A DNA stretch of 64,000 bases, taken from assembly GCA_020723105.1 (NCBI GenBank), contig DYJL01000008.1, positions 10,564-74,563 of the forward strand. Direction: 5' to 3'. Shown piece after piece: positions 1 to 21,885 of the stretch (its first letter is position 1; every line of letters starts with the position of its first letter). The DNA comes from Nitrospira japonica. GTDB taxonomy: Bacteria > Nitrospirota > Thermodesulfovibrionia > UBA6902. A program made the translations under genes and the position numbers. A model generated the notes under the pieces. That model made no database searches, was not told the origin of the DNA, and saw only the letters and a list, made by a program, of their open reading frames with translations.

Positions 1-1
1 G

Positions 2-1270
2 GGAATAGATGTAAGCGGAAGTATGAAAGGGGTGCCAATAATGGAGGCAAAAAGATCGGCATCAATATTTCTGGATCAGCTTGATAAAAAAGATTTTGTT
101 TCAATCATGAGCTTTGGAAGTAAAGTCATGTTCCTTACCGATTTTACCGAGAAAAAACATGAAGCAAGGGCGAAAATAGAGAGTCTTATTGCCAACGAAC
201 AGTGGACATGGCTGTATCAGGCCACTTATGAAGGGCTGGATAAGGCATCCAGAGCGCCAACCTCAAGAGTTGCTGTAGTGCTTCTCACTGACGGCAAGGA
301 TGAGGGCAGCCATAGGACTGAGGAAGAGGTGGTAGCGAGAATTGGTGGAACGCAGGTGCCTGTGTATACGCTTGGTTTCGGCCAAAATGCGCAGGTGGAA
401 TATCTTAAGAGAATAGCAGGTATAAGTAGGGGATATTTTCTTTTCACTCCAAATGCAGAGGATCTCTCAAAACTATATAGCATGGTGATAGACCAACTGA
501 AAAACCAGTATTTAATCAGATTTAGTCTTACAGGCCCTGCTGGTAACTATACCAGCATCGTAAAGCTTAATTATCGGGGGAAAGTAATAACAGCTCGCAG
601 GGGTTTCATGCATTTTATTGTCGGGCCGGAACCGGGTAGAAGTTTGAATCCGAAATTATGGCTGGGAATAATAACTTTGGTTTTTGTTATTGCAGGTGCG
701 GTCTTTTTTATAGCAAATCGTAAAAAACAAGGACACAAACAACCGCAAGAGAATGGGTCAATACCTGAAGTAAGTATAATGGCAAACAAAAAGATCAATC
801 CGATCGGTTTTTTTTCGGACACCTCGAAAGATTTCACGAAAACAGTTATAACCCCTTCACAGTCAAGGGGTGAGGTGGGTTTTGAAATAGATATACCACC
901 TATTCCGTTCACATTTTCCCTTGCAGACAAAAGAAATAAGAAAGAATATAACGAGGTTATAATAACCCGATATGATAAAGATAAAGAACACTTATTTTCC
1001 AATGAGAAAGTATATCTATTATTTTCAGACAGTTCAGTGTCGCGTCCTGACGAGGGAAGAGAAGGGCATGCCAAGATCTTTGTTGATGAAAGCACACAAA
1101 CATACAAATTGGAAGATCTGGGAAGTGCCTCAGGTACCAGAATCAACAATTACGGGCTGTTAAGGAATGGGGAAGTATGGGTCCTTACAGACGGAGATAT
1201 AGTCATTGTTGGGCATACATCCTTGCAGTTTTATGATAAGAGGCAATTAACTGCTGATACAACATTTTGA
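2..1270 (+). CDS. vWA-TM-FHA protein (5' end outside window)
   Basis: Frame is open from the window edge (nt 2-22 encode GIDVSGS with no stop). GIDVSGSM matches the vWA MIDAS motif DxSxS. A single TM segment follows (LWLGIITLVFVIAGAVFFIA). The C-terminal FHA signature is GSASGTRINNYGL...GDIVIVG. Confidence 0.6.
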   Translation, partial: GIDVSGSMKGVPIMEAKRSASIFLDQLDKKDFVSIMSFGSKVMFLTDFTEKKHEARAKIESLIANEQWTWLYQATYEGLDKASRAPTSRVAVVLLTDGKDEGSHRTEEEVVARIGGTQVPVYTLGFGQNAQVEYLKRIAGISRGYFLFTPNAEDLSKLYSMVIDQLKNQYLIRFSLTGPAGNYTSIVKLNYRGKVITARRGFMHFIVGPEPGRSLNPKLWLGIITLVFVIAGAVFFIANRKKQGHKQPQENGSIPEVSIMANKKINPIGFFSDTSKDFTKTVITPSQSRGEVGFEIDIPPIPFTFSLADKRNKKEYNEVIITRYDKDKEHLFSNEKVYLLFSDSSVSRPDEGREGHAKIFVDESTQTYKLEDLGSASGTRINNYGLLRNGEVWVLTDGDIVIVGHTSLQFYDKRQLTADTTF

Positions 1271-1282
1271 GGAGACAAGCTG

Positions 1283-1921
1283 ATGAATGAAAATGATAAT
1301 AAAACAAACAGAAAATCAGGCAATATTGCTGACTGGATAAATGAACAGAAAAAACACAAGGAACAGCATGGTCGAGGAAAAGATGAAGCAGACAATATCT
1401 GGCCGCCGGAACCGGTAAAACGAAAAGTTGCTGAGAACATGAAGAATCAGAGAACTGAAACAATGCAGGTACACAGCCATGATAAAGAGGATAAAAAAAC
1501 ACCGATCAATAACAGACAAGATGTGGCAGACAATATTGGGCTGCCAACACAGATTGATGGATTACCGCAAGGTATATATGCACATTTTTTGCTGACAAAC
1601 ATATCAGGACTGGGAAGGAAAAAAGGTATACCACGTTATATGAAGCTTGAAAAGACCAAAACGCTTATAGGGAAATATGCAAGTGCCCACATAAGACTTG
1701 ATGACGAAGACACTATTGAAATCAAACATGCAAAAATTATCTTTGAAGATACTGGTGGGAAGAAAGATTTTGTTATTTACCCTATAAATAATGCCAGTTT
1801 GTCTGTAAATGGCAGCACAGTGTCAGATAGCGGCATTGTATTACACAGTGGGGATACGGTAGAAATAGGCAGTGCAGAGCTCATCTTTTTCTATAAAGAT
1901 ATTAAAAGGAACCTATCATGA
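1283..1921 (+). CDS. FHA-domain protein
   Basis: C-terminal FHA motif: GKYASAHIRLDD...SLSVNGSTVSDSGIVLHSGDTVEIG. The polar N-terminal half is low-complexity. A 12-nt gap separates it from the upstream gene, and it overlaps the downstream gene (ATGA). Confidence 0.55.
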   Translation: MNENDNKTNRKSGNIADWINEQKKHKEQHGRGKDEADNIWPPEPVKRKVAENMKNQRTETMQVHSHDKEDKKTPINNRQDVADNIGLPTQIDGLPQGIYAHFLLTNISGLGRKKGIPRYMKLEKTKTLIGKYASAHIRLDDEDTIEIKHAKIIFEDTGGKKDFVIYPINNASLSVNGSTVSDSGIVLHSGDTVEIGSAELIFFYKDIKRNLS

Positions 1922-2643
1922 AAATAGGTCGTATAAGTGACTGTGGCATTGCAAGAGAACAGAACGAAGACTCATATATTATTGACGAAGCGATAGGACT
2001 GTATTTGGTTGCTGACGGGGTAGGAGGACATCAGGCAGGTGAAATAGCCAGCAGAACAGGAGCTGAAACTATTTGCAGAACAATAAAGAATAAACTTGCT
2101 GATCAAGATGGACAGAGTATAGAGTTAATAATAAAAGAGGCTATTGACAGCGCCAATAGGGAAGTATTAAATCAGGCGACAAGTAATTCTAACTTCCACG
2201 GTATGGGTTCTACAGTGGTTTTAGGATTATACAGGAATGACAAACTCTATATTGCACACGTAGGAGACAGCCGGGCCTATTTGATCAATTCTAATGATAT
2301 TATACTTTTGACGGAAGACCATTCTATCGTTGCCAGCCTTGTAAGAGCAGGAAAGATTACAGAAAAAGAGGCAAGAAATCACAACATGCGCCACATCATT
2401 ACACAGTGCCTGGGCAGTCAGGAATATTTTGGTCCTGAAATAAAAATTATTGATTTTAAAAAGGATGATACCCTCCTGTTATGCTCAGACGGGCTTACCG
2501 ATATGGTTGAAGATAGTAAGATTAAAAAGACTGTGCTCAAAAAAAGGAAAGACCTGCAGGATTGTGCCTGGGAATTAGTGAGATTAGCCAACAAGAACGG
2601 CGGACTGGATAATATAACCATTATTTTGGCAGAAAAAAATTAA
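1918..2643 (+). CDS. PP2C-family Ser/Thr protein phosphatase
   Basis: PP2C motifs are present: LYLVADGVGGHQAGEIAS, GMGSTVVLGLY, HVGDSRAYL and LLLCSDGLTDMV. Confidence 0.8.
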   Translation: MKIGRISDCGIAREQNEDSYIIDEAIGLYLVADGVGGHQAGEIASRTGAETICRTIKNKLADQDGQSIELIIKEAIDSANREVLNQATSNSNFHGMGSTVVLGLYRNDKLYIAHVGDSRAYLINSNDIILLTEDHSIVASLVRAGKITEKEARNHNMRHIITQCLGSQEYFGPEIKIIDFKKDDTLLLCSDGLTDMVEDSKIKKTVLKKRKDLQDCAWELVRLANKNGGLDNITIILAEKN

Positions 2644-2655
2644 AGAAATTAAGAA

Positions 2656-3606
2656 ATGTATGGAGGATTCTATATGAATTTTAAAAAGATAAAATTGGAT
2701 TTTGAAAACACTTTTGTGGTGTTTGCTACGGGTGCATTATTAACAGGGTTGATATTCCTGATCTTATACTTTCTACCCAACACTGTTTATTTGCGTATCT
2801 TCTTTTACAGAAGCTGGTATGTACAGTCAATAACAACATGGCTTTTCTGCACAGCAGTCCTATTTGTGATATTTAAATATATGCGTCTTAAGGTAGAAAG
2901 AAGTATCCTTGACAATAAGGTAATTATAGAACGGCTCGACTCCATTACTCTTCAGCACGCAAGAGATGTATTGGAGAAAATACCTGAAAAATACAGGGAT
3001 ACCATCAGTTTCAGACGTATAAGTGAGCTTTTGAGGGGATATATACATAGAGAAGAGGTGGTAAGACTCAATCAGGAACTTTCAAGGAGGGATGTAGAAC
3101 AGATAGAAGGAGGGCATCTTGTTTTAAACTCACTGAAACAGCTTGTCCCGGTACTTGGTTTTCTCGGGACCGTCATTGGTTTATCTTTGGGAATGGTAAA
3201 TTTTTCTGATGTATCCGAAACCGTCGGCAACATAGAAAGTTTGAGGGTTAAATTAAAAGACCTTGCTGCATCCCTCAGCGTTGCCTTTGATACGACACTG
3301 TTAGGACTTGGTTATACGATCGTGCTTGTATTGATTTCATCATTATTAAGACGCAAAGAGGAGTCTTTTATTGCTGATGTAGATAACAAGTCCAGGGCGC
3401 TGATCACGAAATTAAGATATTTTTCAGATGCAGCGGAAAGGTCAGAAGGCAGTCACGATGGTGGTTATGGCAAGGAAATTGTAAATGCTCTCCGTCAGAA
3501 TGGAGACGCCATTTTGAAAAAGTTGGATGAGTTGAAGGACGGCTTACAAAAACCGCCTCACTACGAAATTATTGTTCAGCCTGTAAAAGGAAAAGATGTT
3601 GAATAA
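2656..3606 (+). CDS. MotA/TolQ/ExbB-family proton channel protein
   Basis: There are 2 N-terminal TMs and a cytoplasmic loop. The family-typical motif VPVLGFLGTVIGL sits in TM3, and TM4 has A..L..T..GL..I spacing (LAASLSVAFDTTLLGLGYTIVL). Confidence 0.65.
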   Translation: MYGGFYMNFKKIKLDFENTFVVFATGALLTGLIFLILYFLPNTVYLRIFFYRSWYVQSITTWLFCTAVLFVIFKYMRLKVERSILDNKVIIERLDSITLQHARDVLEKIPEKYRDTISFRRISELLRGYIHREEVVRLNQELSRRDVEQIEGGHLVLNSLKQLVPVLGFLGTVIGLSLGMVNFSDVSETVGNIESLRVKLKDLAASLSVAFDTTLLGLGYTIVLVLISSLLRRKEESFIADVDNKSRALITKLRYFSDAAERSEGSHDGGYGKEIVNALRQNGDAILKKLDELKDGLQKPPHYEIIVQPVKGKDVE

Positions 3607-4546
3607 GAAAGGAAGCATAGAGATACTCATGCTGCTGGGCTGTCTGGTCGGGGTTATTGTCTTTCTGAGCTTTGCAATGGGGGTTTTAAGTCTTGCTTCT
3701 AAAATAGAAAAGGATAATATTCCGGACCATTCCAGATTATTGGAGAAACGGAAGAATTTACTGGAAGAAAAAAAGAAGAAAGAAGAAGATGTTGCGAATC
3801 TTACAAAAGAGAGCGGAGAATTAAGAAATAAAATATCGGAAAAAGAGAAGGATTTTGAAAAAATAAAATTGCCTGAAAAAGAGCAGGAGAAAAAAGAGGA
3901 ATTGATCAGTCTTAAGAAACGGCTCGATGAATTACTTAGACTGATAAAGACTAAACAGGATGAGCTTGAAAAAATCAAACAGGAGTTGGCCGGATTAGAA
4001 GAATATGGAAAAAAAGAAGAAGACCTTAAGAAATTAAGAGAAGAACTGGAGGCATTAAAAAGGAAAAAGAAAGATAAAGAAGAAGAAATAGCAAAAACAT
4101 CTTTTTATAAAAATAATGCAATGATAAAGGAAATAGAAGAACTCAGGAAGGCGATTAAAGAAGCTGAAGAAAAAATGAAAGAGCTGAAAAATAAACTAAA
4201 GGAGGGAAATGATCCCGTATTGGAGGGCATCAGAGGAAGCCTTTCTATAAAAAATCCCCTTTTTGTTGAATGTAAGAATAATATGATTATATTGCACCCG
4301 GATAAAAAAGCCCTGACTGTTTCTGACCTGGGGAAGAACAATACTTTTTCGAATATTAATGTTACGCATAGAGGTATCGTGTTTTTCATAAGGCCGGATG
4401 GTTTTGATACTTTCAACGAAAGTTTTGGACTTGCACAAAAAATAGCAGATAAATCTAATTTGGACCTTGCTTATGAGCCTATTGATTCAGATTATGATCT
4501 TGATTCTTTAATCGAAAAACTGGGGAAAAGAAATGAAAAGAGATGA
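3596..4546 (+). CDS. TolR/ExbD-like single-TM protein with long K/E-rich coiled-coil stalk
   Basis: N-terminal TM (IEILMLLGCLVGVIVFLSFA) is followed by ~190 aa of heptad-like K/E/L repeats. The C-terminal domain (NPLFVECKNNMIILHPDKK...GIVFFIRPDGFDTFNESFGLAQKIADKSNLDL) resembles the ExbD/TolR periplasmic fold pattern. It overlaps the upstream gene by 11 nt. Confidence 0.45.
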   Translation: MLNKKGSIEILMLLGCLVGVIVFLSFAMGVLSLASKIEKDNIPDHSRLLEKRKNLLEEKKKKEEDVANLTKESGELRNKISEKEKDFEKIKLPEKEQEKKEELISLKKRLDELLRLIKTKQDELEKIKQELAGLEEYGKKEEDLKKLREELEALKRKKKDKEEEIAKTSFYKNNAMIKEIEELRKAIKEAEEKMKELKNKLKEGNDPVLEGIRGSLSIKNPLFVECKNNMIILHPDKKALTVSDLGKNNTFSNINVTHRGIVFFIRPDGFDTFNESFGLAQKIADKSNLDLAYEPIDSDYDLDSLIEKLGKRNEKR

Positions 4547-5606
4547 TTTTTCTTTTCTCAAGCTTTTTGAAGACCCGCTTATGACAATCATTGCCATTGT
4601 ACTGTTCAGCACGGTCTGGATGATACTACCCAAAGAGACAAAGCCCGTTGACGCTAAGGTGTATCTTACCCTTGATGAACTTGAAACTCTGAAGAGAGAG
4701 ATTGATTCGCTCGATAAAACAATAAAAAAACTGAAAATGGAAATTAAGCGGCGGAACGAAGAGATCAAATGGATTGAGAGCAGGATAGAAGAAACTGTAA
4801 ATGAGAAAATCAAAGACGTCCAGGGAAAAAATACAGAGCAGTTAAAGAACGAAGCTGCAGCGACAATAGACAGGATCAAGAAAGAAAAAGAGGAACTCAA
4901 CCGCCTGGAAGAGGAATTGGAAAAAGCAAAAATGAAGCTGGCTCAAATTAAAGGTAAAGATAATAGTGAACTTATCATAGAAACAATAAGAATGAAAAAA
5001 GAAATTGAAAAAATTAAAGAAGATATCGGCCTGTTGGAAGAGAGAATAAGACTGGCTTTAAAAGACCTGAAAAAAGAAAAAGACAATAAGAATACCCAGG
5101 AGAATTTGATTGCTCAACTGCAAAATGAATTAAAGACAAAACAGACTGAAGTTGGGCAACTTGAAGAACAGGTAAAAGGAATAGGGACAGGAGGAGGATT
5201 TAAACCAATTGTTAAATCTGAGAAAAACCCTTTCTTTATAGAACTGGTAAACAATCATTTGTTTCCCGTAGATGATGTCCATTATGAAGCTGAATATGGT
5301 TATATAAAAATCAAGGATGGCAGAACAGTGCAGGCATCCAAAAAAATCCGAAAGTCTTCCAGCGGTGAACATATCAGCAAAATTGAGAATTCTGAAAGCA
5401 ACTTCAATAACATATTGAAAAAACTTGATGTTAGTAAAGAACGTATTATCTTCTTAGTCCATAATAATTCTTTTGAGATCTTCAGAAAAGCGAGGGCGAT
5501 AGCTTTAAAAAAGGGGATCGAAACAGGCTGGTGGACACGCGAAGGTGATTCAATAATAATCACTTATGGCGGAGGCGGGACAGACATAGGCTCCTACAAA
5601 GAATGA
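4533..5606 (+). CDS. TolR/ExbD-like single-TM protein with long coiled-coil stalk (paralogue of 3596-4546)
   Basis: N-terminal TM has an acidic residue at its start (FEDPLMTIIAIVLFSTVWMIL), like the conserved Asp of ExbD/TolR. About 200 aa of K/E-rich coiled coil follow. The C-terminal domain (NPFFIELVNNHLFPVDD...ERIIFLVHNNSFEIFRKARAIALKKGIETGW) resembles the ExbD/TolR domain. It overlaps the upstream gene by 14 nt. Confidence 0.5.
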   Translation: MKRDDFSFLKLFEDPLMTIIAIVLFSTVWMILPKETKPVDAKVYLTLDELETLKREIDSLDKTIKKLKMEIKRRNEEIKWIESRIEETVNEKIKDVQGKNTEQLKNEAAATIDRIKKEKEELNRLEEELEKAKMKLAQIKGKDNSELIIETIRMKKEIEKIKEDIGLLEERIRLALKDLKKEKDNKNTQENLIAQLQNELKTKQTEVGQLEEQVKGIGTGGGFKPIVKSEKNPFFIELVNNHLFPVDDVHYEAEYGYIKIKDGRTVQASKKIRKSSSGEHISKIENSESNFNNILKKLDVSKERIIFLVHNNSFEIFRKARAIALKKGIETGWWTREGDSIIITYGGGGTDIGSYKE

Positions 5607-5690
5607 AAATAACTAACAGAGAGCAAGATAAAATACTTTTTCAGGAGAATTAGTCAGTAACAATTTTAATTGGAACAGGAGGGAACAAAA

Positions 5691-7079
5691 ATGAAATTAC
5701 ATCAAATCAAAAAAACAGTTTTCAGAAGCAGTATGCTGGTTTTACTGTTTCTTGTTGCTTTATTTATATTCAACCTTAAAATCTCAAACGCTCAATCCAC
5801 CCTGATAGTAAGTAAAGAAGTTGAGGGCGCAGTCCTTGCTGAAGACTGGGCAAAGGTTGCGAAATTGCTTGATGACGTGAAGGCAGAAACACCCGAACCG
5901 GTACTTCGACTGATCAAAGGACATGCTGATCTGGCATTGAACAGGAACAATGAGTCTTTATGTATGTTCATAAGCGTGGCTTCATCAGATAACGATCTTC
6001 AGGAGTGGGACAAGTGGACACGGGATTTTGCGGGAAGAAATCCAAAAAGCATAATTGCGTATTACTTCAGAGGAGATGCACTGGCAAGAATAAAGAAATG
6101 GGATGAGGCATTGACGGCATTTAACAAGGCTCTGGAACTTAATCCAAAACATGCGATGGTTTTGAATGCGAGAGGGGTTGTGTATGCGGCGAAGAGGGAT
6201 CTGACCCTTGCACGTAATGATTTCGATAATGCTATCAGCATCAACCAGTCTTTCGCAGATGCCTATGCAAATCTCGGTTCAAGATTTATACAGATGAAAG
6301 ACGGAGCGGAAGGAGCGATAAATGAATTTGATAAAGCGCTGAGGATTTCGCCAGGGTTCGCGCTTGCTCTCCATGGAAAGGGGAACGTGGAAGTAATTCT
6401 TTTTCAAATAGAGGAAGCAGAAAAAAATCTTAATAAGGCAAAGGAATATGGGACGTGCGGTAAGGAACTCTTTAATGAAAACATTATTAACATTGCAGCT
6501 TATGTTCATGGAGTGGATAAAAAGGAATTGATTGCAATGATTCCAAAAGATGGAGATGGAATAGGGATGTCATTAAAGAGAACATTTGAAAATCCTGTAG
6601 GTTCATCCGGGTTAAAGCAATTTGAGAATTCATTAAAGAATTTTGAGCGTTTTGGGGGTAAGCCTGGAGTTGGACAGTGGAGTTTTAATAGAGTTGGTGA
6701 AAGTTTCTATCATTTATCTCCTACTGAGAAAATTACAGCCAATAAAATGGTGGATAACTTCCTGGATAAGAATCCAAATTTAAGCAGGCATTTCTATGAA
6801 GGCGCAAAAGATTTCGCACATAATCCTATCAGAAGCTTTGGATACGAAGTAAAAGGGAAAATTGGTGGAACAATGGGTGGGATGGAAGCAGGAGTGAAAA
6901 TTCCCGCCTCTACTTCTGATCAAGCATATAGAGACATCGGCAAGGGGTTCCAAGATAAGGCTATGAATCGTATGAGTAATCTTCCGGAAGGCGTCCTTGC
7001 AAGCCTTGCCGATGCAAATTGGGATGAGGGTCAATGGCCGTTTGTAGAGTACTATGGCCTTATTTACAGCATGAAGTAA
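5691..7079 (+). CDS. Secreted TPR-repeat protein
   Basis: AGGAGGG lies 8 nt upstream of the ATG at 5691, so the longer 5670 start is disfavoured. A signal peptide is present (LVLLFLVALFIFNLKISNAQS). At least 5 TPR-like 34-aa units are visible (AYYFRGDALARIKKWDEALTAFNKALELNP, AMVLNARGVVYAAKRDLTLARNDFDNAISIN and others). Confidence 0.6.
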   Translation: MKLHQIKKTVFRSSMLVLLFLVALFIFNLKISNAQSTLIVSKEVEGAVLAEDWAKVAKLLDDVKAETPEPVLRLIKGHADLALNRNNESLCMFISVASSDNDLQEWDKWTRDFAGRNPKSIIAYYFRGDALARIKKWDEALTAFNKALELNPKHAMVLNARGVVYAAKRDLTLARNDFDNAISINQSFADAYANLGSRFIQMKDGAEGAINEFDKALRISPGFALALHGKGNVEVILFQIEEAEKNLNKAKEYGTCGKELFNENIINIAAYVHGVDKKELIAMIPKDGDGIGMSLKRTFENPVGSSGLKQFENSLKNFERFGGKPGVGQWSFNRVGESFYHLSPTEKITANKMVDNFLDKNPNLSRHFYEGAKDFAHNPIRSFGYEVKGKIGGTMGGMEAGVKIPASTSDQAYRDIGKGFQDKAMNRMSNLPEGVLASLADANWDEGQWPFVEYYGLIYSMK

Positions 7080-7104
7080 TAAATGTTTAATGCGGGGTAT
7101 TGGA

Positions 7105-10100
7105 ATGAAAACAGCTAAATCGAAAACATTGCTTTTTACATTTATTTCCGTCCTGTTTCTCTCTTGCATTGCATATGCGGACCAATTTATTGCCTTTTCC
7201 CTCAATAAAGCAGAAATGGAAATGAGAGAATCAGGACGTTCCCATAAAAACAGGTTATTCGAACTTGGAGGAATAACCCGGCCTGTTGGAATTGTATATG
7301 ATGCCAACCGCAGTGATTTGATTGTAGTTGGGCAGATAAATGAGAAAGAACAAAAAATATCTCTTGATGATTTTGTAGTTGCCTTGAGAGCGATTTCAGT
7401 GTACAAGGAATCTCCGTTGGTGAGCATTGACAGATCTGATGAGACTGAAACAACCAAAAGGCAAAGAGTGCGCTTTGAGGGGGGGATAGAAAATACTAAA
7501 TTCGGAAAAGACTTGCTTGAGGCGGATATCATTCTGAAAAAAATGGGAGTCGGGGAGCTGCGGACCGATATTTGGGGTGTTAAATCCTATGTCGATATGT
7601 CGGCGGAGTATTGGAATAAGACGGGGATTGAGGATTCAGTTTCCAGCCGATTCTGGTTTAAACCTTCAAAAGAAAAATCTTTTGTTGGCGTTCGCGATGG
7701 CGTAGTCATCGTAAAAAAATTAGTAATTGATGTAAAAACGGAAGTTATGGGAGCAATTAATTCACACCGACCTGTGGATGACCGAGCAGGAAGTTATGAT
7801 GAGATCGGAGATAGATTTGCCAGTGCAGTGGCAGCAAATATTGATGATATTGATTCATATTATTCTGAGGTAAAAAGGTTAGACCCTCTTTTTCGATTGG
7901 TTGGTCTGGCTGAGGGTATCAAAAGAGAGGCTTTCAACTTCAAACCTGATATAAATTTCTGGTTGAATGAATATAGAGTAGAACATATAGAAACGCTAAA
8001 GGATTATCCACTGTTAGTGAAAGAAAAGAGACTGGAAAAAAATGGGGAAAACCGTCAAATGACAATTAATGGCGGCATAGAATTAAGACCACTTCTTGTA
8101 GATCTTAATGCTGGTGTTGTAACAGCATTAAGAGATATTGTTATTAAATCCAGACCTGAAGGGAATCCGTTAATATGGAAATTGCCGCTTGAAGGATGGC
8201 AACTACCTGAGGATTCAAAAATAGATATTACTGCATTCGGTAAAAAGTTAAGAGATTCAACTGCGGGGGTAAACGGTATGAGCTTAACTAAGCGGATTTC
8301 CCCTGTTGATTCTCCCGGAAATCAGAAAATAAATTATAAATCATCTCCCCTGTCCGACGGGGGCTCAAACTTCAATTTTACAGATAGATTTTCTCCTCAG
8401 AAATACTCCCCTCACGTCGGCGGAGTTATGCTCCAGGGTGTAGCAAAGGTTTCAGGCGGGGAACAGGCGAAGGTTGATCTCACAAGCGGAAATTTTTCTT
8501 TGATCGTGGGCGGGCAGAATGCGCGGCTTGCACCCGAGGCATACAGAAAATTCATAACAGCGCTATGGTCTGTATATTACAGTCAGAAAGACCCCGGTAT
8601 TTCCATCGATCCGATCGGATGTTTTTATTTTGATCCCTATGACCCTGAAAGGGACAAAAAATTTGCGGAATGCCTGAAACGCTATGAGAAAAAGGAAGAG
8701 AAGCACATGGTCCGCTACATCGGCAAAGTGATCAACACGGACCTTGGGAGAGTCATGCGGGAGGCGGACTACGTGATGAAAAAGTGGTCGGTCGGAACAG
8801 AGAAGCCTGGTATTTCAGGATTCAAAAGCCCGGATGAATACAGGGGCTGGAAAACTACTGATAGCGAAGGATCGAGCCGCTTCTGGTTTGTCCCTGAAGA
8901 TATGAAGTTCAAACGTGGCGGTGACATGCTCCTTTTTGAGGACGGCAGGATGACAGTAAAAACAGAGTATATGTTTAAAAATGATGAAGGTGCACAGGCA
9001 GATCCGTACAACGAAAAGTTTGCCGGGTTCTTTACCGAACACTATGGAGAAATTGCCAATAAATATCCTGTCTATCAGGAACTTTTTGAATATGCGAAAA
9101 TGGTGAGCCTGGCCAAATATCTCAAAGAGCAGGGTCTTCCCATGTTCTGGTTCCTGATGGCTAACAAGGATCTGGTCATTACCGAGGATTCTCCCGGTAC
9201 TGTGGAAGCGCTGGCAAAGGGATCGGATTATTATAAAAACTTATATATAATGGGCGGAGTAGACCTTGGCTTTGATGCCAGACGCGAAGGCAATTATGTG
9301 TATGACCGTGAGGCAGTAAGGGCCATAAATGAAGCTGTTTCCAAGCTCCCTTTAAATGCTTATTCAAAAACCACACTATCTGCAGGGGACATAACTCCTG
9401 CGAGTTCAGAGCCGTTCTCCTTTAACCTTGGAAAGGACAGCTTCACTGTTGTCCCGCAACATTCGCTTACATCAGGCAAGGACAGACATGGGATCAGATA
9501 CCAGACAGACATAGCTTTAAGAGGGACAGGCTTACAACTGACCGGACGGGCGCTTGAGACTATAAAGAACAAAATTATTAGGTGGATGATGGTACAGGAA
9601 CTGAATCCGATATTACGGACTAAAGATACCACTAAATTATCTGAAGCTGAAATTGAAGCCCTTAATAAGAGAATTACAGAAGAAACAGAAAAAGCTAAAA
9701 CGAAAGCAGGAAAGATCATTGAAAAGATGGAGAGTTTAAAAAATATTAAATATACAGATGAAAATAAATTTGTAAAAGCTCTTGAAGAAACCATAGGCCG
9801 GGAAAAAACAGATATTTTTAAGAGAATGGTTATGGAATTTGCCTATTACAACACTAATCTGGACCTCGTACGCTATTTTAAACCGGGACAACAGGACATC
9901 GGAGAGTTCGGTAAAGGCTGGCATTTATTGATACCCTATCGTCTTAAACCCGCAGGCGATGCCAAAAGAAAATTCCTTAATGTGTTGATTCCGGAGAAGA
10001 TGGCTGTAGAAAACCAGCTTACCGGGGATCAAGAGGTGCTCACATTCAGTACAGACCGTTATACAGTTGCAGGTTATGTGCCTGCAAAACTTGAGTCGAG

Positions 10101-10812
10101 TCAGGTGGTGGGACTATTCATGATGTCTGATGCCTCATATCGTCTTGCGGACAAGTTGGGTAATGAGTTTTGGTTTGACCGGGCAGGTTATCTTACCGAC
10201 ATGATCTTTTCTGAGGACCATCATATTCATGTTGAATATGCTGACAGTTTTACTGACGCTTTTGAAGAAATCCCTTATCAGATCCAGCCTGCAGGTAAAG
10301 AGCAAACGGCATTTCTTAATGTCTTCATACCAAGAAAAATGACTGTTAAGAACCTCATCAGTGGAGATAGCGAGATCCTGACCTTCAGTGAAGAAGGCGA
10401 ATTTGCTGGATATGTTCCTGAAAATGCGGAAAAGAGCAGCTATAAAATATTAGCGCTAATGTCAGATGCATCTTTCCATCTGCTTGATAAGAATGGGAAT
10501 GAGACGTCATTCAGTTCCTTGCGGACTTTTGATGGAAAATTTAAAGAGATGGCTTTTTCTTCTGATCGCAGAATGGTGAGATCCGTGTCACAGGGCAATC
10601 AAAAGATCGGTTTTAAATATTCTATAGACAGATCAGGAGAAGTTATGATAGCCAGCGCCAATCTCTCGGAAGGCGAAGAAACAAAACTGAGTTATATAGT
10701 GAAATATAAATATGATAAGGAAGGCAGGCTCTATAGTGTAACTGGGACGGGGAATACAATAGCTAAAACTCAACATCAAAATAATGAAATGCTGATGCAT
10801 GTGAAAAAATAG
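7105..10812 (+). CDS. Large secreted protein (1236 aa), unknown function, internal tandem repeats
   Basis: Signal peptide MKTAKSKTLLFTFISVLFLSCIAYA precedes DQF. An ~100-aa tandem repeat starts at PAGDAKRKFLNVLIPEKM... and repeats at PAGKEQTAFLNVFIPRKM.... A second repeated motif is SSRFWFKPSKEK / SSRFWFVPEDMK. I recognise no known catalytic motif. Confidence 0.7.
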   Translation: MKTAKSKTLLFTFISVLFLSCIAYADQFIAFSLNKAEMEMRESGRSHKNRLFELGGITRPVGIVYDANRSDLIVVGQINEKEQKISLDDFVVALRAISVYKESPLVSIDRSDETETTKRQRVRFEGGIENTKFGKDLLEADIILKKMGVGELRTDIWGVKSYVDMSAEYWNKTGIEDSVSSRFWFKPSKEKSFVGVRDGVVIVKKLVIDVKTEVMGAINSHRPVDDRAGSYDEIGDRFASAVAANIDDIDSYYSEVKRLDPLFRLVGLAEGIKREAFNFKPDINFWLNEYRVEHIETLKDYPLLVKEKRLEKNGENRQMTINGGIELRPLLVDLNAGVVTALRDIVIKSRPEGNPLIWKLPLEGWQLPEDSKIDITAFGKKLRDSTAGVNGMSLTKRISPVDSPGNQKINYKSSPLSDGGSNFNFTDRFSPQKYSPHVGGVMLQGVAKVSGGEQAKVDLTSGNFSLIVGGQNARLAPEAYRKFITALWSVYYSQKDPGISIDPIGCFYFDPYDPERDKKFAECLKRYEKKEEKHMVRYIGKVINTDLGRVMREADYVMKKWSVGTEKPGISGFKSPDEYRGWKTTDSEGSSRFWFVPEDMKFKRGGDMLLFEDGRMTVKTEYMFKNDEGAQADPYNEKFAGFFTEHYGEIANKYPVYQELFEYAKMVSLAKYLKEQGLPMFWFLMANKDLVITEDSPGTVEALAKGSDYYKNLYIMGGVDLGFDARREGNYVYDREAVRAINEAVSKLPLNAYSKTTLSAGDITPASSEPFSFNLGKDSFTVVPQHSLTSGKDRHGIRYQTDIALRGTGLQLTGRALETIKNKIIRWMMVQELNPILRTKDTTKLSEAEIEALNKRITEETEKAKTKAGKIIEKMESLKNIKYTDENKFVKALEETIGREKTDIFKRMVMEFAYYNTNLDLVRYFKPGQQDIGEFGKGWHLLIPYRLKPAGDAKRKFLNVLIPEKMAVENQLTGDQEVLTFSTDRYTVAGYVPAKLESSQVVGLFMMSDASYRLADKLGNEFWFDRAGYLTDMIFSEDHHIHVEYADSFTDAFEEIPYQIQPAGKEQTAFLNVFIPRKMTVKNLISGDSEILTFSEEGEFAGYVPENAEKSSYKILALMSDASFHLLDKNGNETSFSSLRTFDGKFKEMAFSSDRRMVRSVSQGNQKIGFKYSIDRSGEVMIASANLSEGEETKLSYIVKYKYDKEGRLYSVTGTGNTIAKTQHQNNEMLMHVKK

Positions 10813-10906
10813 AATTTAATTTAATTGTTATGATATAAGCTCATTACTGTTCAATCAGGCAAGATAAGATAAAATAAAATTTTTCGGAAACAGAAAGGGA
10901 GACTAT

Positions 10907-11848
10907 ATGAAGAGAATACTCGTAACAGGCGGTGCTGGATTCCTCGGCTCGCATCTTTGCGGGAGGTTGCTGAAAGAGGGGCACGAAGTAATATGTGTTG
11001 ATAATTTCTATACAGGCCGGCGTTCCAACATCGCAGGTTTCTTAGATAACCCTATGTTTGAAGTAATACGACATGATGTTTGTTTCCCTTTATACATTGA
11101 AGCAGATGAAATATATAACCTGGCCTGTCCGGCCTCGCCGATTCATTATCAGTTTGATCCTGTACAGACTACAAAGACCTCGGTTCACGGCGCCATAAAC
11201 ATGCTGGGACTTGCAAAACGGATTAAGGCAAAAATATTTCAGGCCTCAACTTCTGAAGTCTACGGCGACCCGCAGGTTCACCCGCAGCCCGAATCTTATT
11301 GGGGCCATGTAAATCCTATTGGTTTTCGATCCTGTTATGATGAGGGAAAAAGGTGCGCTGAGACCCTTTTCTTTGATTATTACCGACAGCATAAGCTTAA
11401 GATAAAAGTCGCAAGAATATTTAATACGTATGGACCGAGAATGCACCCTAATGACGGCCGGGTAGTGAGCAATTTCATTATGCAGGCCTTGCATGGGGAC
11501 CCTATTACAATTTATGGCAACGGGCAACAGACCCGGAGTTTCTGCTATGCAGATGATATGATAGAGGGCTTTATAAAATTCATGAATTCTCCTGATGATT
11601 TTACGGGCCCGGTAAATCTCGGCAACCCTGGTGAATTTACAATACTGGAGCTGGCTGAAAAGGTTATAAAACTGACCAGGTCCAAGTCCAGGATAGTTTA
11701 TAAACCTCTGCCGTATGATGATCCCTCACAGCGCCAACCCAACATAAAGCTCGCAAAAAGCAAACTCAAATGGGAGCCGAAGGTAAACCTGGAAGAAGGG
11801 CTTAAGGAAACTATCAAATACTTTAAGAAATTAAAAATTGATCCCTGA
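10907..11848 (+). CDS. UDP-glucuronate decarboxylase (UDP-xylose synthase), SDR family
   Basis: The NAD-binding motif [12 protein letters not shown] and catalytic YxxxK (CYDEGKR) are present. There is high overall similarity to UXS/ArnA-type decarboxylases ([15 protein letters not shown]). Confidence 0.85.
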
Positions 11849-11863
11849 AATTTATAATATCGT

Positions 11864-14557
11864 TTGAAAAACATAATTTTAAATATCAACGGCAGAAGTA
11901 TTCAGACTGTTGAAGGCCGAACAGTCCTGAAGGCTGCGAGAGAAAACGGGATCTACATCCCTACCCTTTGTTACCATCCCCGTACAAAACAGGCCGGCAA
12001 GTGCAGAATATGTGTTGTAGAAGTTGAAGGTTTGCCTGGTTTGAGAATATCCTGTTCGCTCGAAGCAAAAGAGAACATGGTCGTGCTTACAAATACAGAG
12101 CGCGTCCTTGAAACCAGAAAGATGATTGTTGAGTTGTATCTGTCAAGCGGCAAACACAACTGTATTTCATGTGAAGCAAACGGCCGTTGTGAACTGCAGG
12201 AAGTTACATACCGTCTTGGCATAGAGAAGTCCACCTTCCCTGTATTGACTAAAGATTATCCGCCTGATACATCCAGCCCGATGATAATCAGGGACCTGAA
12301 TAAGTGCATTCAGTGTTACCGGTGCATTGCCGGATGCAATAATATCGCAGTTAATGAAGTCCTCGATATGGGGTTTCGGGGCAGCAATATGACTGTAGTC
12401 TGCGATACAAACAAGCCGATGGGAAAATCTTCATGCGTGATTTGCGGCGAATGCGTTCAGCTCTGTCCGACAGGCGCGCTGACAGAGAAAAAGGCCTTTG
12501 GCAAGGGAAGGCCCTGGGAGATAAAAAAAATCAAGACCACATGCCCCTACTGCGGTGTCGGCTGTCAGGTTCATCTGCATGTCAAGGATAATGAGATTGT
12601 GAAAGTGACTGGTGTGGAGGAGGTTGCTCCCAATTACGGCAGCTTATGCATAAAGGGAAGGTTCGGATACGATTTTGTTCATTCTCCTGAAAGATTGAAA
12701 ATGCCGCTTTTAAGAAAGAATGGTAAATTTGTTGAAGTCAGTTGGGATGAGGCGCTCGATTTTACTGCAAGCAGGCTCCTTGAAATTAAAAAGGCCCGGG
12801 GGCCGGAATCTATTGTCGGCATCGGCTGCGCAAGGACTACGAATGAGAACAACTATGTTATGATGAAATTCATGCGTGCGGCAGTTGGCACCAACAACGT
12901 AGACCACTGTGCGCGCACCTGACACGCTCCAACTGTAGCCGGTCTGGCTGCAACTCTGGGTGCAGGCGCAATGTCCAATTCCATCAGGGAGATTGAGAAC
13001 AGCCCGGTCCTGTTTGTAATTGGTTCAAATACAACAGAAGCACATCCGGTTATTGCCAACAGTATGAAGAGGGCCGTCAAGAAGGGCAGCATCCTTATTG
13101 TTGCAGATCCGAGAAAAATTCCCCTTACGCGCTGGGCCACAAAACATTATCAGCATAAGGTAGGTTCAGACATTGCCTTGCTGAATTCAGTGATGCATGA
13201 GATTATAAAAAACGGCTGGCACAACAAAGAATTCATCAGCAGCTATACCGAAGGATTTGATGAATTACAAAAGGTCGTCAGCGCTTATCCACCGGAACGC
13301 GCTTCAGAGATATGCGGAGTTTCAGAGGATGGAATCAGAGAACTTGCAATGCTGCTCGGCACGGCTGAGAGAGTTGCGCTTTATTACACACTCGGAATTA
13401 CCGAACACGTTACAGGGACAGACAACGTCAAAACCTGTGCAAACCTGCAAATGCTTCTCGGCAATATCGGCAAGGAATATACCGGCGTTAATCCATTAAG
13501 GGGGCAGAACAATGTTCAGGGAGCCTGTGACATGGGAGTGCTTCCGGATGTGTTTACAGGATATCAGAAGGTGGCTGATGAAACGGTCCGGGAGAAGTTT
13601 GCAACTGCATGGGGTATTAATTCTTTGCCTGAAACCGCAGGCACAAAAATACCGGCCATGTTTGACGGAATGCTTCACGGCGACATTAAGGCGCTCTATC
13701 TTGTTGGTGAAAATGTAGTGATGTCAGAACCCCATCAGGCGCATACAATCAGGGCGCTTGAAAAACTCGAGCTTCTCATTGTGCAGGATATTTTTTTCAA
13801 TGAGACTGCGCAATATGCGCATGTGGTTTTACCGGCTGCGTGCTTTGCCGAGACAGAAGGGACCGTCACCAATACTGAGAGGCGGGTTCAGCGCGTCAGA
13901 AAGGCCGTGGAACCGCCAGGACAGGCTAAGGAAGACTGGTGGATTATCAGTGAGCTTGCAAGAAGGATGGGCTACCTTATGGACTACACGTCAACAGAGC
14001 AGATATGGGAGGAAGTTCGCAAATTAACGCCAAACATTTCCGGTATTACATTTGAAAGGATCGAGCGAGAGGGCCTTCAATGGCCCTGTCCGGATATTAA
14101 TCATGCCGGTACATGTTATCTTTACTGTGACAATATATTTCCCTGCGGCAAGGCCAGGTTTCAACCTGCACAGTGGAAACCGCCGGCAGAGGTTCCTGAC
14201 AGGGAATATCCGTTTGTGCTTACAACAGGCAGAAGGCTCTGGCATTATCACACAGGGACCCAGATACGAAAATCTGCAGGATTTGATGATGTCTTCCCTG
14301 AGGAACTTATCGAGGTAAACAAGGAAGATGCCGGAAGTCTGGGTATAAAAAATGGCGATTATATCCGCGTTGTCTCACGCAGAGGAATGCTGAGAGTAAA
14401 GGCCTGGGTTACGGACCACGTTTCACCAGGCTTGTGCTTTATGACCTTTCACTTTCATGAGGCCTGTGCAAACGCTCTGACGAACAATGCCTTTGACCCG
14501 TTTGCAGGCACTGCCGAATATAAGGCATGTGCAGTGAGGCTGGAGAAAGAGGGATAG
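11864..14557 (+). CDS. fdhA: Formate dehydrogenase alpha subunit, selenocysteine-containing (NAD-type with N-terminal 2Fe-2S/4Fe-4S NuoG-like domain)
   Basis: TTG start. The N-terminus has a 2Fe-2S ferredoxin and 4Fe-4S motifs (CIQCYRCIAGC, CVICGECVQLCP). Context VDHCART-TGA-HAPTVAGLAATLGAGAMSNS places the TGA at 12920-12922 at the conserved Sec position of FdhA/FdhF. The downstream ORF (12971-14557) is in the same frame. A SECIS-like hairpin lies 13 nt after the UGA. Confidence 0.85.
12935..12951 (+). other. SECIS-like hairpin downstream of fdhA UGA
   Basis: GUAGCC-GGUCU-GGCUGC forms a 6-bp stem (including one G-U pair) with a GGUCU apical loop, like the E. coli fdhF SECIS apical loop. Confidence 0.55.
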
Positions 14558-14574: not shown

Positions 14575-15264
14575 TTATTTCCTTTCTGGCCCCCTCGACC
14601 AAGGCGATTTGTCTCTTACCTCAACTACGTTAATAAGATACCCGAAGGGATAGTCCGGCTGATAAAGATGGAATTTATCGAACTCAAAGAGTTTTCTTGA
14701 GGCCAGGAGGAATCTGTAACAGGGGTTGTCTTTCTGAAGTATTTCCACCTTTCCATTTACCTGAAAGCTTATATACTGCATGCCCTGAGGAGTGTGAGAC
14801 ATTCCAACATAGAGAAGACTTGAATAAGGATTCTCCCTGAGATTCTCAAGGGCCTTTCCTTCAAATATCTCAAGTCCGCCAAGGATGGCTGGATCAAAGT
14901 TGTCTGTATTCTGATAAAGCCTATGAACAGCCTCGATCCTCTTGTGAAGGCTTTCACGCCACGGCATGGCCCGTGCTTCTACTATGGCAGCCTCAAATAT
15001 ATCTGTATAATCCTGAAGATATTTCGCCTTTGGAATGAGGCCGATTCCCTTGACTGTCATATTCACAGGGAACGAATCTCCCTGCCGCCATGTTGCCATC
15101 ACAGGAAGATGCGCAGCAAAGTAACGCATGGGCTGGCCTTCTTTCATATCATTGAGAAATTTAATCCTTGATGATACAAGCCACTCAAGGAAATGTGCCG
15201 GAATTGCATTTAATGTTAAACGTGATGGATGAAACTGTTGTTCTTTTTCTTTTAATTTCATCAT
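14575..15264 (-). CDS. Conserved hypothetical protein (last gene of the molybdoenzyme operon)
   Basis: A 229-aa soluble protein with no recognisable motif. AAGGAGGG RBS lies 6 nt upstream of the ATG. It is co-directional with, and 52 nt downstream of, the gamma subunit gene. Confidence 0.5.
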   Translation of the reverse strand: MMKLKEKEQQFHPSRLTLNAIPAHFLEWLVSSRIKFLNDMKEGQPMRYFAAHLPVMATWRQGDSFPVNMTVKGIGLIPKAKYLQDYTDIFEAAIVEARAMPWRESLHKRIEAVHRLYQNTDNFDPAILGGLEIFEGKALENLRENPYSSLLYVGMSHTPQGMQYISFQVNGKVEILQKDNPCYRFLLASRKLFEFDKFHLYQPDYPFGYLINVVEVRDKSPWSRGPERK

Positions 15265-15315
15265 ACCCTCCTTTACCCTACACCCTCTGCCCTACACCCT
15301 TTTATTTTCTACACC
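15265..15315 (-). promoter_or_regulatory. G-rich (GGGTGTAGGG)n tract immediately upstream of start codon, potential G-quadruplex/regulatory element
   Basis: The minus strand reads GGGGATAAGAAGAAAAAGGGGGTAGGGTGTAGAAAATAAAAGGGTGTAGGGCAGAGGGTGTAGGGTAAAGGAGGG-ATG. That gives at least 5 GGG runs with 1-7 nt loops. Confidence 0.4.
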
Positions 15316-16203
15316 CTACCCCCTTTTTCTTCTTATCCCCATAATTATTCCAGCCTCTATCCCCAGTGTGCCTATGAAAGCAAGCACCGGATAAAAATAT
15401 ATAGTCTCTTTCTCCTCTGTCTCAAGGGCAACATAGTACCATGTAGAGACAACCTTTCTACCGCCCCTGTCACCTTCAGAGCCATTCCATACTGCAAGAG
15501 AAAGTGGGGTGACGCTGCCTTCCCTGAAAACAACGTCGAATTTATCCTGAGATGTCAGGGGCCGCTTAAACACAACAAACCATTTCCCGGACTGCCATTT
15601 TCCGTTACCGCTGATGTTTTGGATATCAGCCTTTTCCAGATCAGTTGCGTTTCCAAAGCCCTGAGCGATTATATTTTCAACAGGTGAAATTCTCGCTCTT
15701 GATACAGGATTGCCGACCTCAAGGCCTCCGGCAAATTCATCTGATGTTGCATAGGTACTATGCATGTCATTTGCATTTTGCCATGAAGCTTTCCAGAACC
15801 AGATATTTACAGGATTGTCTTTGTCGCCCATTGCAAAATGCGGTTTGGATGCAGCAGCAGATGAGGGAAATTCCAATGCCACGGCATCAGAGAACTTATC
15901 TACATCTAATGACGAATCTTCTGAGGCATCACTCCACTCAAGCAGAAAGGCCATTTCTTTTGTGTTGTGCAGGGCCCGGACCTTTAAATTTTTTACAGAA
16001 GATTCATAGGTCCTCGGTTTTGCCATAACCTGTGGAGCGAGGGGAATTTCAATGGCAGATGCATTGTTCCAGGCGCTGTTATCAGCTTCAAGGGGCAGAT
16101 CACCCGATACCTTCTTTGCCATGACAACAAGACCCTGGGAATAGGCATCAAAAGACAGGAGGAAAAAACAGAGAAGAGCGAAAATAGTTATCATTGCGAG
16201 CAT
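15316..16203 (-). CDS. Gamma subunit of type II DMSO-reductase-family enzyme (EbdC/NxrC-like, haem b), membrane-anchored
   Basis: A start at MLAMITIFALLCFFLLSFDAYSQG gives a signal peptide. The longer ORF extending to 16431 consists of REP repeats. The EB_dh-like domain and a C-terminal TM helix (FYPVLAFIGTLGIEAGIIMGI) are present. It is adjacent to the beta subunit. Confidence 0.65.
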   Translation of the reverse strand: MLAMITIFALLCFFLLSFDAYSQGLVVMAKKVSGDLPLEADNSAWNNASAIEIPLAPQVMAKPRTYESSVKNLKVRALHNTKEMAFLLEWSDASEDSSLDVDKFSDAVALEFPSSAAASKPHFAMGDKDNPVNIWFWKASWQNANDMHSTYATSDEFAGGLEVGNPVSRARISPVENIIAQGFGNATDLEKADIQNISGNGKWQSGKWFVVFKRPLTSQDKFDVVFREGSVTPLSLAVWNGSEGDRGGRKVVSTWYYVALETEEKETIYFYPVLAFIGTLGIEAGIIMGIRRKRG

Positions 16204-16210
16204 AGTGTGC

Positions 16211-16301
16211 TGTCCGTAACAGTTCTTTACACTGTCATTGCGAGGGACGAAGTCCCGAAGCAATCTCACTACGAGATTCCTCGCTTCGCTCGGAATGACA
16301 A
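16211..16301. repeat. REP/MITE-like palindromic element, family A (inverted pair of GTCATTGCGAG...GAAGCAATCTC units)
   Basis: The sequence is CTGTCCGTAACAGTTCTTTACAC-TGTCATTGCGAGGGACGAAGTCCCGAAGCAATCTC-ACTAC-GAGATTCCTCGCTTCGCTCGGAATGACA. It lies in the beta-gamma intergenic spacer. Confidence 0.65.
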
Positions 16302-16345
16302 AGCTGTAAAGATATTTAGCTGACAGGACAATAGGAAAGCAATCT

Positions 16346-16396
16346 TTCTTTTGACTACGAGATTGCTTCACACCCTTTGGGTGTTCGCAATGACAT
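16346..16396. repeat. REP family A single unit (reverse orientation)
   Basis: GAGATTGCTTCACACCCTTTGGGTGTTCGCAATGACA has an internal palindrome CACCC(T/A)AAGGGTG. Confidence 0.55.
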
Positions 16397-16440
16397 CTGA
16401 ACTTGTCTTCATAAATTTGAAATTTTCTCATTATCCCCTC

Positions 16441-17637: not shown

Positions 17638-17671
17638 TCATGTTATATGTCATTGCGAGCGAAGCAATCTC
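17591..17671. repeat. REP family A inverted pair in alpha-beta intergenic spacer
   Basis: The sequence is GTAGATTGCTTCGTCATCCCGAAGAATCGGAATTCCTCGCAATGACA-ATCATGTTATATG-TCATTGCGAGCGAAGCAATCTC. Confidence 0.6.
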
Positions 17672-17688
17672 AATTTGAAATTTTAAAT

Positions 17689-21833: not shown

Positions 21834-21885
21834 TTAAACCTTCCCTTTCTTAGCAGTTTTTCTACTCCTTACCCTACACCCTGTC
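21834..21885 (-). promoter_or_regulatory. G-rich TAGGG-type tract upstream of chaperone/nxr-like operon start
   Basis: The minus strand reads CGAGGACGTGGGAGTAAGACAGGGTGTAGGGTAAGGAGTAGAAAAACTGCTAAGAAAGGGAAGG. Confidence 0.35.

Follow-up and report, generated by a model that had tools for sequence, protein, structure and literature searches.

We analyzed a 64-kb stretch of contig DYJL01000008.1 from the Nitrospira japonica assembly GCA_020723105.1 (positions 10,564 to 74,563 of the forward strand; hereafter, the window), which opens with genes encoding two FHA proteins, one of them also carrying a vWA domain, and a PP2C phosphatase (positions 2..2643). This region is probably the downstream part of a Hanks-type phosphorylation module that belongs to a ten-gene operon and switches a MotA-like motor. 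The signalling half of the operon is of a known kind, being the standard Hanks-kinase/FHA/PP2C/vWA set, and the motor half, judged from its sequences, appears to lie within the MotA/ExbB superfamily and outside its described families. The kinase itself is encoded just upstream of the window, and the association of signalling and motor genes recurs in several phyla.

Operon layout and the upstream kinase

Window open reading frames (ORFs) were scanned against Pfam, NCBIfam equivalog cutoffs were applied, and PADLOC models were used for defence families; the loci compared are cited by label (L001 etc.). Eight ORFs in tight packing occupy positions 1..10812, all on the + strand. The first (2..1270) comprises the 3′ four-fifths of a gene for a vWA–transmembrane (TM)–FHA protein and is a fragment, as the window begins inside its MIDAS motif (GIDVSGSM; MIDAS stands for metal ion-dependent adhesion site). 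It matches Pfam VWA (1.6e-14, 54.9 bits) and FHA (1.4e-05, 25.9 bits, cutoff 20.7), with the vWA domain at approximately 5..478, the TM segment at 656..712, and the Pfam-matched part of the FHA domain at 1067..1213. It is followed by a small FHA protein of 212 amino acids (aa) (hereafter, FHA2; 1283..1921; Pfam FHA 7.9e-07, 29.9 bits) and a 241-aa PP2C phosphatase (1918..2643; Pfam PP2C 6.1e-23). Both FHA matches are weak. The Pfam results bear out an initial annotation of this region, which had listed two FHA proteins, a PP2C phosphatase, and a vWA domain. Next come a 316-aa channel subunit of the MotA/ExbB/TolQ family (hereafter, the MotA-like subunit; 2656..3606; Pfam MotA_ExbB [PF01618] 7.4e-12, 45.6 bits vs. 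a cutoff of 22.9), two single-pass coiled-coil proteins with no Pfam match (CC1: 316 aa, 3596..4546; CC2: 357 aa, 4533..5606), a 469-aa exported TPR protein (5670..7079; Pfam TPR_2 1.2e-16), and, as the final gene of the cluster, a 1,240-aa exported protein (BIG; 7090..10812) with a sub-threshold DUF1598 match only.

The initial annotation had also stated that no Ser/Thr kinase is encoded in the window, and motif, tblastn, and profile searches agree. The HRDxKxxN motif is absent from all six frames of the 64-kb window, the best window match to a PknB kinase domain in tblastn reached E = 0.5, and a profile made from seven kinases of related loci returned no match at E ≤ 10 among window ORFs of at least 70 aa. 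Because Logan contig SRR13164373_10460 (L001) is identical to the window over 6,873 bases (L001 8084..14956 = window 1..6873; 100%, 0 mismatches, 0 gaps), it reveals the DNA upstream of the window, into which it extends for 8 kb. A 585-aa kinase gene with Pkinase and PEGA domains (L001 5391..7148, same strand as the operon) sits there, 935–2,692 bp ahead of window position 1, with one gene between it and the vWA–FHA gene. Direct reading of the protein shows intact catalytic motifs (GEGGMGVVYKA, VALK, HRDIKPGN, DFG, and SPE), and the kinase domain matches the PknB-type NCBIfam model at 1.8e-94. The next genes on the same strand are that of a 203-aa lipoprotein (L001 7165..7776; lipobox VSGC) and the complete vWA–TM–FHA gene (513 aa; L001 7812..9353), the 5′ end of which lies 272 bp outside the window. 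The question of the missing kinase is settled and its answer is ordinary: the kinase is encoded just upstream, one of the places that the initial annotation had proposed.

The order of the ten genes is Ser/Thr kinase (kinase–TM–2×PEGA), lipoprotein, signal peptide–vWA–TM–FHA protein, degenerate FHA protein, PP2C, MotA/ExbB-like channel, CC1, CC2, exported TPR protein, and BIG. They look like a single operon because the intergenic spacing from the kinase gene to BIG is only −14 to +63 nt. At the border of the signalling and motor genes, the PP2C gene overlaps the FHA2 gene by 4 nt and ends (2643) 12 nt short of the MotA-like start (2656). The 510-bp gap between the kinase gene and a divergent leuB-type gene holds an 11/12 sigma-70-like match, which is a consensus match only. 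Alternative starts exist for the MotA-like (2656 vs. 2674), TPR (5670 vs. 5691, ATG), and BIG (7090 vs. 7105) genes. In public gene calls, CC1 starts at 3629 and thereby loses the conserved N-terminal GSIE and the beginning of the TM helix; judged against orthologues, the ATG at 3596 is the likelier start.

Linkage of signalling and motor genes across loci

The vWA–TM–FHA protein has about 50 full-length relatives. A kinase gene, usually along with a PP2C gene, is present at every locus that reaches upstream of a close homologue, and most loci of more distant vWA–TM proteins likewise have a kinase and usually PP2C; in Ignavibacteria, Cloacimonadota, Acidobacteriota, and Chloroflexota, these distant proteins mostly adjoin PP2C and kinase genes. 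The presence of the kinase alongside in related loci is in line with the earlier expectation that a combination of FHA, PP2C, and vWA domains implies a Hanks kinase.

The order kinase, vWA–FHA, FHA2, PP2C, MotA-like, CC1, CC2, TPR, and BIG is kept in an assembly labelled Desulfobacca acetoxidans (L002; GCA_053529335.1; 42% identity) and in two Deltaproteobacteria metagenome-assembled genomes (MAGs; L009 and L021). Other loci show the same partners in different arrangements. For example, L004 reads MotA-like, CC1, CC2, BIG, an FHA–kinase fusion, vWA–FHA, and a small FHA protein, with no PP2C gene, and L030 (a Bryobacterales MAG, Acidobacteriota) reads MotA-like, CC1, CC2, kinase, vWA–FHA, FHA2, and PP2C. 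At the Desulfobacca-type loci, the kinase gene is preceded by that of a large multi-TPR protein of 668–747 aa (L002 5967..7973; L021 5828..8071; L009 3..728), which phmmer relates to the downstream TPR protein (5e-41). In the genome of the window, the divergent leuB gene takes the place of this upstream gene, and the 203-aa lipoprotein gene follows the kinase gene instead.

To avoid circularity, further locus searches were seeded with motor-side proteins only (CC2 or BIG). In the loci recovered, MotA-like, CC1, and CC2 are contiguous wherever the available sequence allows, and TPR and BIG are usually next. Twelve of these motor-seeded loci span 10 kb or more, and nine of them have a kinase within the fetched flanks (L092, L093, L094, L095, L098, L101, L102, L106, and L108), a raw count from phyla where kinases are frequent. 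The kinase gene adjoins module genes in L093, L095, L102, L106 (Immundisolibacter), and L108 (LCP-89). Five FHA architectures occur beside motor genes, namely vWA–FHA–FHA (L094 and L095, with canonical FHA scores of 107 bits), FHA–trypsin (L102), FHA–kinase (L004), FHA–sigma54 activator, and the small FHA protein, and the sensor domains of the kinases differ between loci (PEGA, TPR, or FGE-sulfatase). Because partners and gene orders change around a constant association, we favour a functional link over inherited synteny. The conserved and rearranged synteny across phyla supports the initial proposal that the module is wired to a stator-like complex.

At L092, the gene at 988..2862 encodes the FHA–sigma54-activator protein (FHA, Sigma54_activat, and HTH_8) and lies directly upstream of the MotA-like gene. 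In this lineage, transcription of the cluster may be under the control of threonine phosphorylation.

Architecture of the signalling and motor proteins

Topology was called from hydropathy and the positive-inside rule. The vWA–TM–FHA protein is predicted to have a signal peptide, a periplasmic vWA domain, one TM helix, and a cytoplasmic FHA domain (hereafter, FHA1). The initial annotation had placed vWA and FHA on the same TM protein, and all of these elements were found, including a vWA domain with the DxSxS/T/D residues. For the kinase, the catalytic domain is predicted to be cytoplasmic and the PEGA domains periplasmic, and PP2C is predicted to be inside. A 20-sequence alignment of the vWA–TM–FHA family shows that the MIDAS residues D94, S96, S98, T160, and D188 are invariant. 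Within FHA1, R414 and H447 never vary, and conservation is 90% or more at S438, R439, S466, and T470.

FHA2 is a soluble protein with a C-terminal, degenerate FHA domain (about 1664..1870). Of the phosphothreonine (pThr)-binding residues, four of nine orthologues have the Arg and two have the Ser, whereas the His and a GSA motif persist. Against the Yop-YscD_cpl model, this protein reaches 27.1 bits, which is below the cutoff of the model. Only the membrane FHA domain retains candidate pThr-binding residues, the small FHA protein being clearly degenerate. The N-terminal tail of FHA2 (1283..1420) is poorly conserved except for a short motif consisting of S/T, then (D/N)W, then a Lys/Arg patch (e.g., KKDTTSDW…KKK, SGDLTDWIKRKK, and SGNIADWINEQKK), which is found in most orthologues and is duplicated in L093. 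We speculate that this motif could be a phospho-acceptor or docking site. The PP2C protein passes the NCBIfam cutoff for the Stp1/IreP PP2C equivalog (260.1 vs. 230), and its metal-binding motifs (NEDSY, ADGVGGH, GDSR, SDGL, and DNIT) are visible in the translation.

On the motor side, the MotA-like subunit has four predicted TM helices and a cytoplasmic loop of ~85 aa between TM2 and TM3. Its GFLGTVIGL and AFDTTLLGL helices (GTV.G, TT..G) are conserved in orthologues, and its matches to the ZorA, ExbB, TolQ, and MotA models are weak, cover the channel helices only, and fall far below every curated cutoff. The genes of CC1 and CC2 come directly after that of the A subunit in the window and most related loci, and CC1 lies between the MotA-like and CC2 genes at every locus that holds both. 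CC1 consists of a TM helix (…GSIEILMLLGC…), a long coiled coil, and a C-terminal α/β domain of ~90 aa; CC2 has a TM helix (…FEDPLMTIIAIVLF…), a coiled coil of ~180 aa, and a C-terminal α/β domain of 130 aa. The two proteins are paralogous, with homologous C-terminal domains (hhalign 91%, E 1.1e-06), and the C-terminal domain family of CC2 comprises 211 cluster representatives. The TM helix of CC1 starts with a Glu in 17 of 23 orthologues. That of CC2 begins FQDP; of 59 relatives in the alignment, 46 have the Asp and four have Glu, and the position reads IIDV or FVDI in distant members, as in ExbD/TolR.

The coiled-coil insert varies in length among lineages (~180 residues in the window, ~90 in Desulfobacca [L002 14089..15615], and none in Planctomycetota), and the TM helix and C-terminal head are retained in all lineages compared despite this variation. 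In the Planctomycetota locus (L107 13569..14782), the CC1 and CC2 counterparts are 178 and 226 aa, without a coiled coil and near the size of ExbD/TolR. Searches of CC1, CC2, and their orthologues against Pfam and NCBIfam gave coiled-coil noise only, the proteins matched no ExbD, TolR, or MotB sequence model, and a profile search with their C-terminal domains found no match among PDB sequences. A weak DUF8429 label on the Desulfobacca CC1 was dropped when it did not recur in our own family scan. Judged by gene order, architecture, and the chemistry of their TM helices, CC1 and CC2 most likely supply a MotA/ExbB-family motor with two distinct B-type subunits, like AglQ/AglS, with CC1 as the candidate B′ and CC2 as the candidate B subunit; the evidence from their fold is weak.

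The two remaining proteins of the cluster carry predicted export signals. The TPR protein, whose orthologue comes after CC2 in most loci, has an N-terminal hydrophobic, signal-like segment. BIG has an N-terminal export signal, two α/β modules, and C-terminal repeats of ~110 aa; compared with PDB sequences it gave no match, and neither an adhesin nor any other known fold was matched.

Proposed mechanism, alternatives, and closest known systems

In the mechanism that we propose, the membrane kinase would sense an envelope cue via its PEGA domains and phosphorylate threonines, its candidate targets being itself and possibly FHA2, in the S/T-containing tail at its N-terminus. The cytoplasmic FHA1 would read the pThr, and the periplasmic vWA domain would use its MIDAS to hold an acidic residue of a periplasmic partner, for which the TPR protein, BIG, or the PEGA domains are candidates. 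The degenerate FHA2 would serve as a phospho-independent adaptor and PP2C would reset the switch. As the output, a proton-driven motor of the 5:2 family would be assembled or gated. This motor would combine the MotA-like subunit with a CC1–CC2 heterodimer (Glu in CC1, Asp in CC2), whose coiled-coil stalks in the periplasm and TolR-like heads would link proton flow to the exported TPR protein and BIG.

Several points weigh against a kinase-switched motor of this kind. Kinases are frequent in these phyla, which limits the weight of the kinase count, and no kinase is within reach at three of the 12 motor-seeded loci (L088, L096, and L107), so the motor can exist without one. FHA1 has no conserved canonical Asn, and its invariant Arg precedes the canonical GR column by ~10 residues. 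S438 and H447 line up with the phosphate-binding Ser and the His, respectively, with 7–11 extra residues in between. When FHA2 is aligned to GarA, it has GK for GR, EIKH for SxxH, and no Asn. The initial annotation had made the proposed regulation depend on pThr-binding Arg, Ser, and Asn residues in the FHA proteins; FHA2 lacks this triad, and FHA1 keeps the Ser/His and an invariant Arg, not the Asn. The layout of FHA1 would be compatible with a working pThr pocket surrounded by loop insertions. Signals could also flow in reverse, with the machine as the sensor and the kinase as the output.

The first alternative refines the switched-motor explanation by naming its output: the motor would move or export a surface component (BIG or others) across the periplasm in adhesion, gliding, or secretion, much as AglRQS–Glt does in Myxococcus or GldLM–T9SS in Bacteroidota, with the kinase as its on/off switch. 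We consider this specific role unlikely, if credible. It would fit the combination of one A subunit with two different TolR-like subunits (as in AglR/AglQ/AglS), coiled coils long enough to span the periplasm, the export signals of BIG and the TPR protein, and the presence of TPR and vWA proteins, as is usual in envelope machines of this sort. Directly upstream of the MotA-like gene, L096 (135..8231) encodes a 3×PEGA protein, two cohesin proteins with type IX secretion system (T9SS) sorting signals (Por_Secre_tail and CHU_C), and a PorP/SprF–TPR protein. These neighbours hint that the cluster acts at the cell surface in that organism, but they are a single case. Moreover, the window operon and the genes annotated at other loci yielded no Glt, Gld, Spr, or T9SS core gene, and the failure of BIG to match an adhesin also speaks against a surface role.

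It is improbable, in our view, that the cluster is a Zorya-like system for anti-phage defence or envelope surveillance, in which the motor with BIG and TPR would sense envelope perturbation and the kinase/FHA/PP2C set would transmit or gate the defence. The only named PADLOC/NCBIfam relatives of the MotA-like subunit are ZorA models (E 1e-6 to 1e-7); however, the score is 28.4 against a cutoff of 100, only channel helices are shared, and the MotA-like subunit has no long tail. PP2C matches the candidate defence family PDC-M21C (1.7e-17), but such a match is expected of any PP2C. Genomic context gives some support: the cluster is patchy across unrelated phyla, the kinase-less L088 cluster ends with a TIR-domain gene (10680..12085), and the Planctomycetota locus L107 (5196..5815, 19636..23531) adjoins integrase, ParB-like, ParDE, and RadC genes. 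In contrast, the window operon stands among housekeeping genes and not in an island, its genes show no ZorB, ZorC, or ZorD match and no nuclease or other effector domain, there is no PADLOC family for CC1, CC2, TPR, BIG, or vWA–FHA, and the conserved partners TPR and BIG are exported. PADLOC models gave only generic PP2C, ZorA-helix, and coiled-coil (JetC/LmuB) matches, which we did not take as membership.

The signalling genes would be mere neighbours of the motor genes if kinase, vWA/FHA, FHA, and PP2C formed a self-contained unit with unlinked targets and the synteny were simply inherited, which seems very improbable. Each half does occur alone, the signalling module without motor genes in L006/L007, in L010, and in numerous distant triads of vWA, PP2C, and kinase genes, and the motor module at the three kinase-less loci named above; comparable Deinococcus vWA–kinase–FHA–PP2C operons have unrelated proposed roles. 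Nevertheless, in at least four phyla the linkage outlasts rearrangement, domain fusion, and swaps in the architecture of the FHA proteins and kinases, and genes overlap or lie 12 nt apart across the module boundary. Finally, a threonine phosphorylation pathway of the PpkA/PppA/Fha1 type serving a type VI secretion system (T6SS) encoded elsewhere is hardly credible, for although it shares the domain vocabulary (Hanks kinase, PP2C, FHA, and vWA), no T6SS family match was found in the ten operon genes, the annotated flanks, or the called genes of related loci, the FHA protein bears the vWA domain in place of the kinase, which carries PEGA instead, and the conserved partner is the MotA-like cluster. 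The likeness to T6SS PpkA/PppA/Fha drawn by the initial annotation thus holds for the domain set and, with no T6SS genes seen, is an analogy only.

Returning to the kinase-switched motor, we suggest, tentatively and as the less probable outcome, that MotA-like, CC1, CC2, TPR, and BIG might represent a new functional class of 5:2-type proton motor, with a Glu/Asp B heterodimer and stalks that drive an exported protein of 1,100–1,240 aa and new fold, and might be the first such motor to be habitually switched by a Hanks-kinase/FHA/PP2C module. Its range would cover Desulfobacterota, Acidobacteriota, Planctomycetota, Gammaproteobacteria, LCP-89, and probably Bacteroidota. Known non-flagellar motors of the MotA/ExbB family include Ton, Tol, Agl, Gld/T9SS, and Zorya, each of which opened a field; to our knowledge and in the papers searched, none of them is known to be under Ser/Thr phosphorylation control. 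The five-gene motor cluster is widespread and annotated only as hypothetical, the assembly labelled Desulfobacca acetoxidans being a named species that has it, and it would offer a defined, testable case of phospho-regulated proton-motor activity. In the literature searched, no paper joins the signalling module with this motor cluster, a 2025 MotAB phylogeny paper mentions FHA nowhere and kinase once, and none of the curated families covers CC1, CC2, or BIG.

The operon is flanked by leuB/asd on one side and by sugar-nucleotide and formate-dehydrogenase genes on the other. Elsewhere in the window, two adjacent ORFs in the same frame (352 and 528 aa; 11864..14557, + strand) are split by one in-frame TGA (12920..12922; context …VDHCART-TGA-HAPTVAGL…) and carry Fer2_4, NADH-G 4Fe-4S, Molybdop_Fe4S4, Molybdopterin, and Molydop_binding domains. 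By its reading frame and domains, this pair looks like a single selenocysteine-containing formate dehydrogenase alpha subunit. On the − strand, 14575..22614 holds an operon of the type II DMSO-reductase family, encoding a molybdopterin subunit of 1,147 aa with a twin-arginine translocation (TAT) signal, a Fer4_11 subunit, an ethylbenzene-dehydrogenase-gamma-like (EB_dh) subunit, a NarJ-like chaperone, and a cytochrome c. After it comes a cytochrome bd subunit I-like gene (23033..24724).

Among known systems, the Deinococcus radiodurans operon DRA0331–DRA0334 encodes a vWA protein, a transmembrane Ser/Thr kinase, an FHA protein, and a PP2C phosphatase (bioRxiv 10.64898/2026.01.23.701218). Like the present operon, it combines these four domain types, with a kinase in the membrane, an FHA protein standing alone, and a PP2C that counteracts that kinase. 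Here, in contrast, vWA and FHA are fused across the membrane, the stand-alone FHA protein is degenerate, PP2C has no FHA domain of its own, and the operon runs on into the MotA-like cluster, whereas the Deinococcus module is linked to DNA-damage kinases. In the H1-T6SS of Pseudomonas aeruginosa, the Hanks kinase PpkA, the PP2C phosphatase PppA, and the FHA scaffold Fha1 switch a membrane machine at the post-translational level, with a periplasmic vWA domain involved in sensing. The vWA domain of that system is on PpkA itself; here it is on the FHA protein, the kinase has PEGA domains, and the machine is a MotA/ExbB-type complex. Phosphorylation-dependent interaction of an FHA protein (ArnA) with a vWA protein (ArnB) that has an intact MIDAS is known from Sulfolobus, with ArnC/ArnD as the kinases and PP2A as the phosphatase (PMC6509490). 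Unlike the extracytoplasmic vWA domain described here, which is tied to FHA by a TM helix, the Arn proteins are archaeal, soluble, and cytoplasmic and regulate archaellum expression. Aravind-type vWA–MoxR "ternary systems" were considered and rejected, as there are no MoxR or VMAP genes at the locus; the eLife 2020 paper on these systems mentions FHA and PP2C in passing and never MotA or ExbB. FHA2 resembles GarA in that its FHA domain is preceded by a disordered N-terminal tail containing S/T residues, and YscD in having an FHA fold without pThr-binding residues. It differs from GarA/OdhI in the absence of an ETTS motif and of evident metabolic enzyme partners, and from YscD in not being membrane-anchored.

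For the motor half, TolQ–TolR–TolA, ExbB–ExbD–TonB, and AglR–AglQ–AglS show the same arrangement, that is, a MotA_ExbB A subunit followed by single-pass subunits with a carboxylate at the cytoplasmic end of the TM helix and a small α/β head, here predicted to be periplasmic. TolQ-, ExbB-, and Agl-type systems are non-flagellar 5:2 proton motors, and Agl has two B-type subunits (AglQ/AglS). In contrast to these systems, the A subunit here has four TM helices, coiled coils of 100–180 residues separate the TM helix from the head, and the partners are TPR and BIG, with no TonB, TolA, Pal, or Glt. ZorA/ZorB of Zorya likewise combine a MotA-family channel with a very long coiled coil; however, the Zorya coiled coil is a cytoplasmic tail of the A subunit, whereas those described here are on the B-type subunits and are predicted to be periplasmic.

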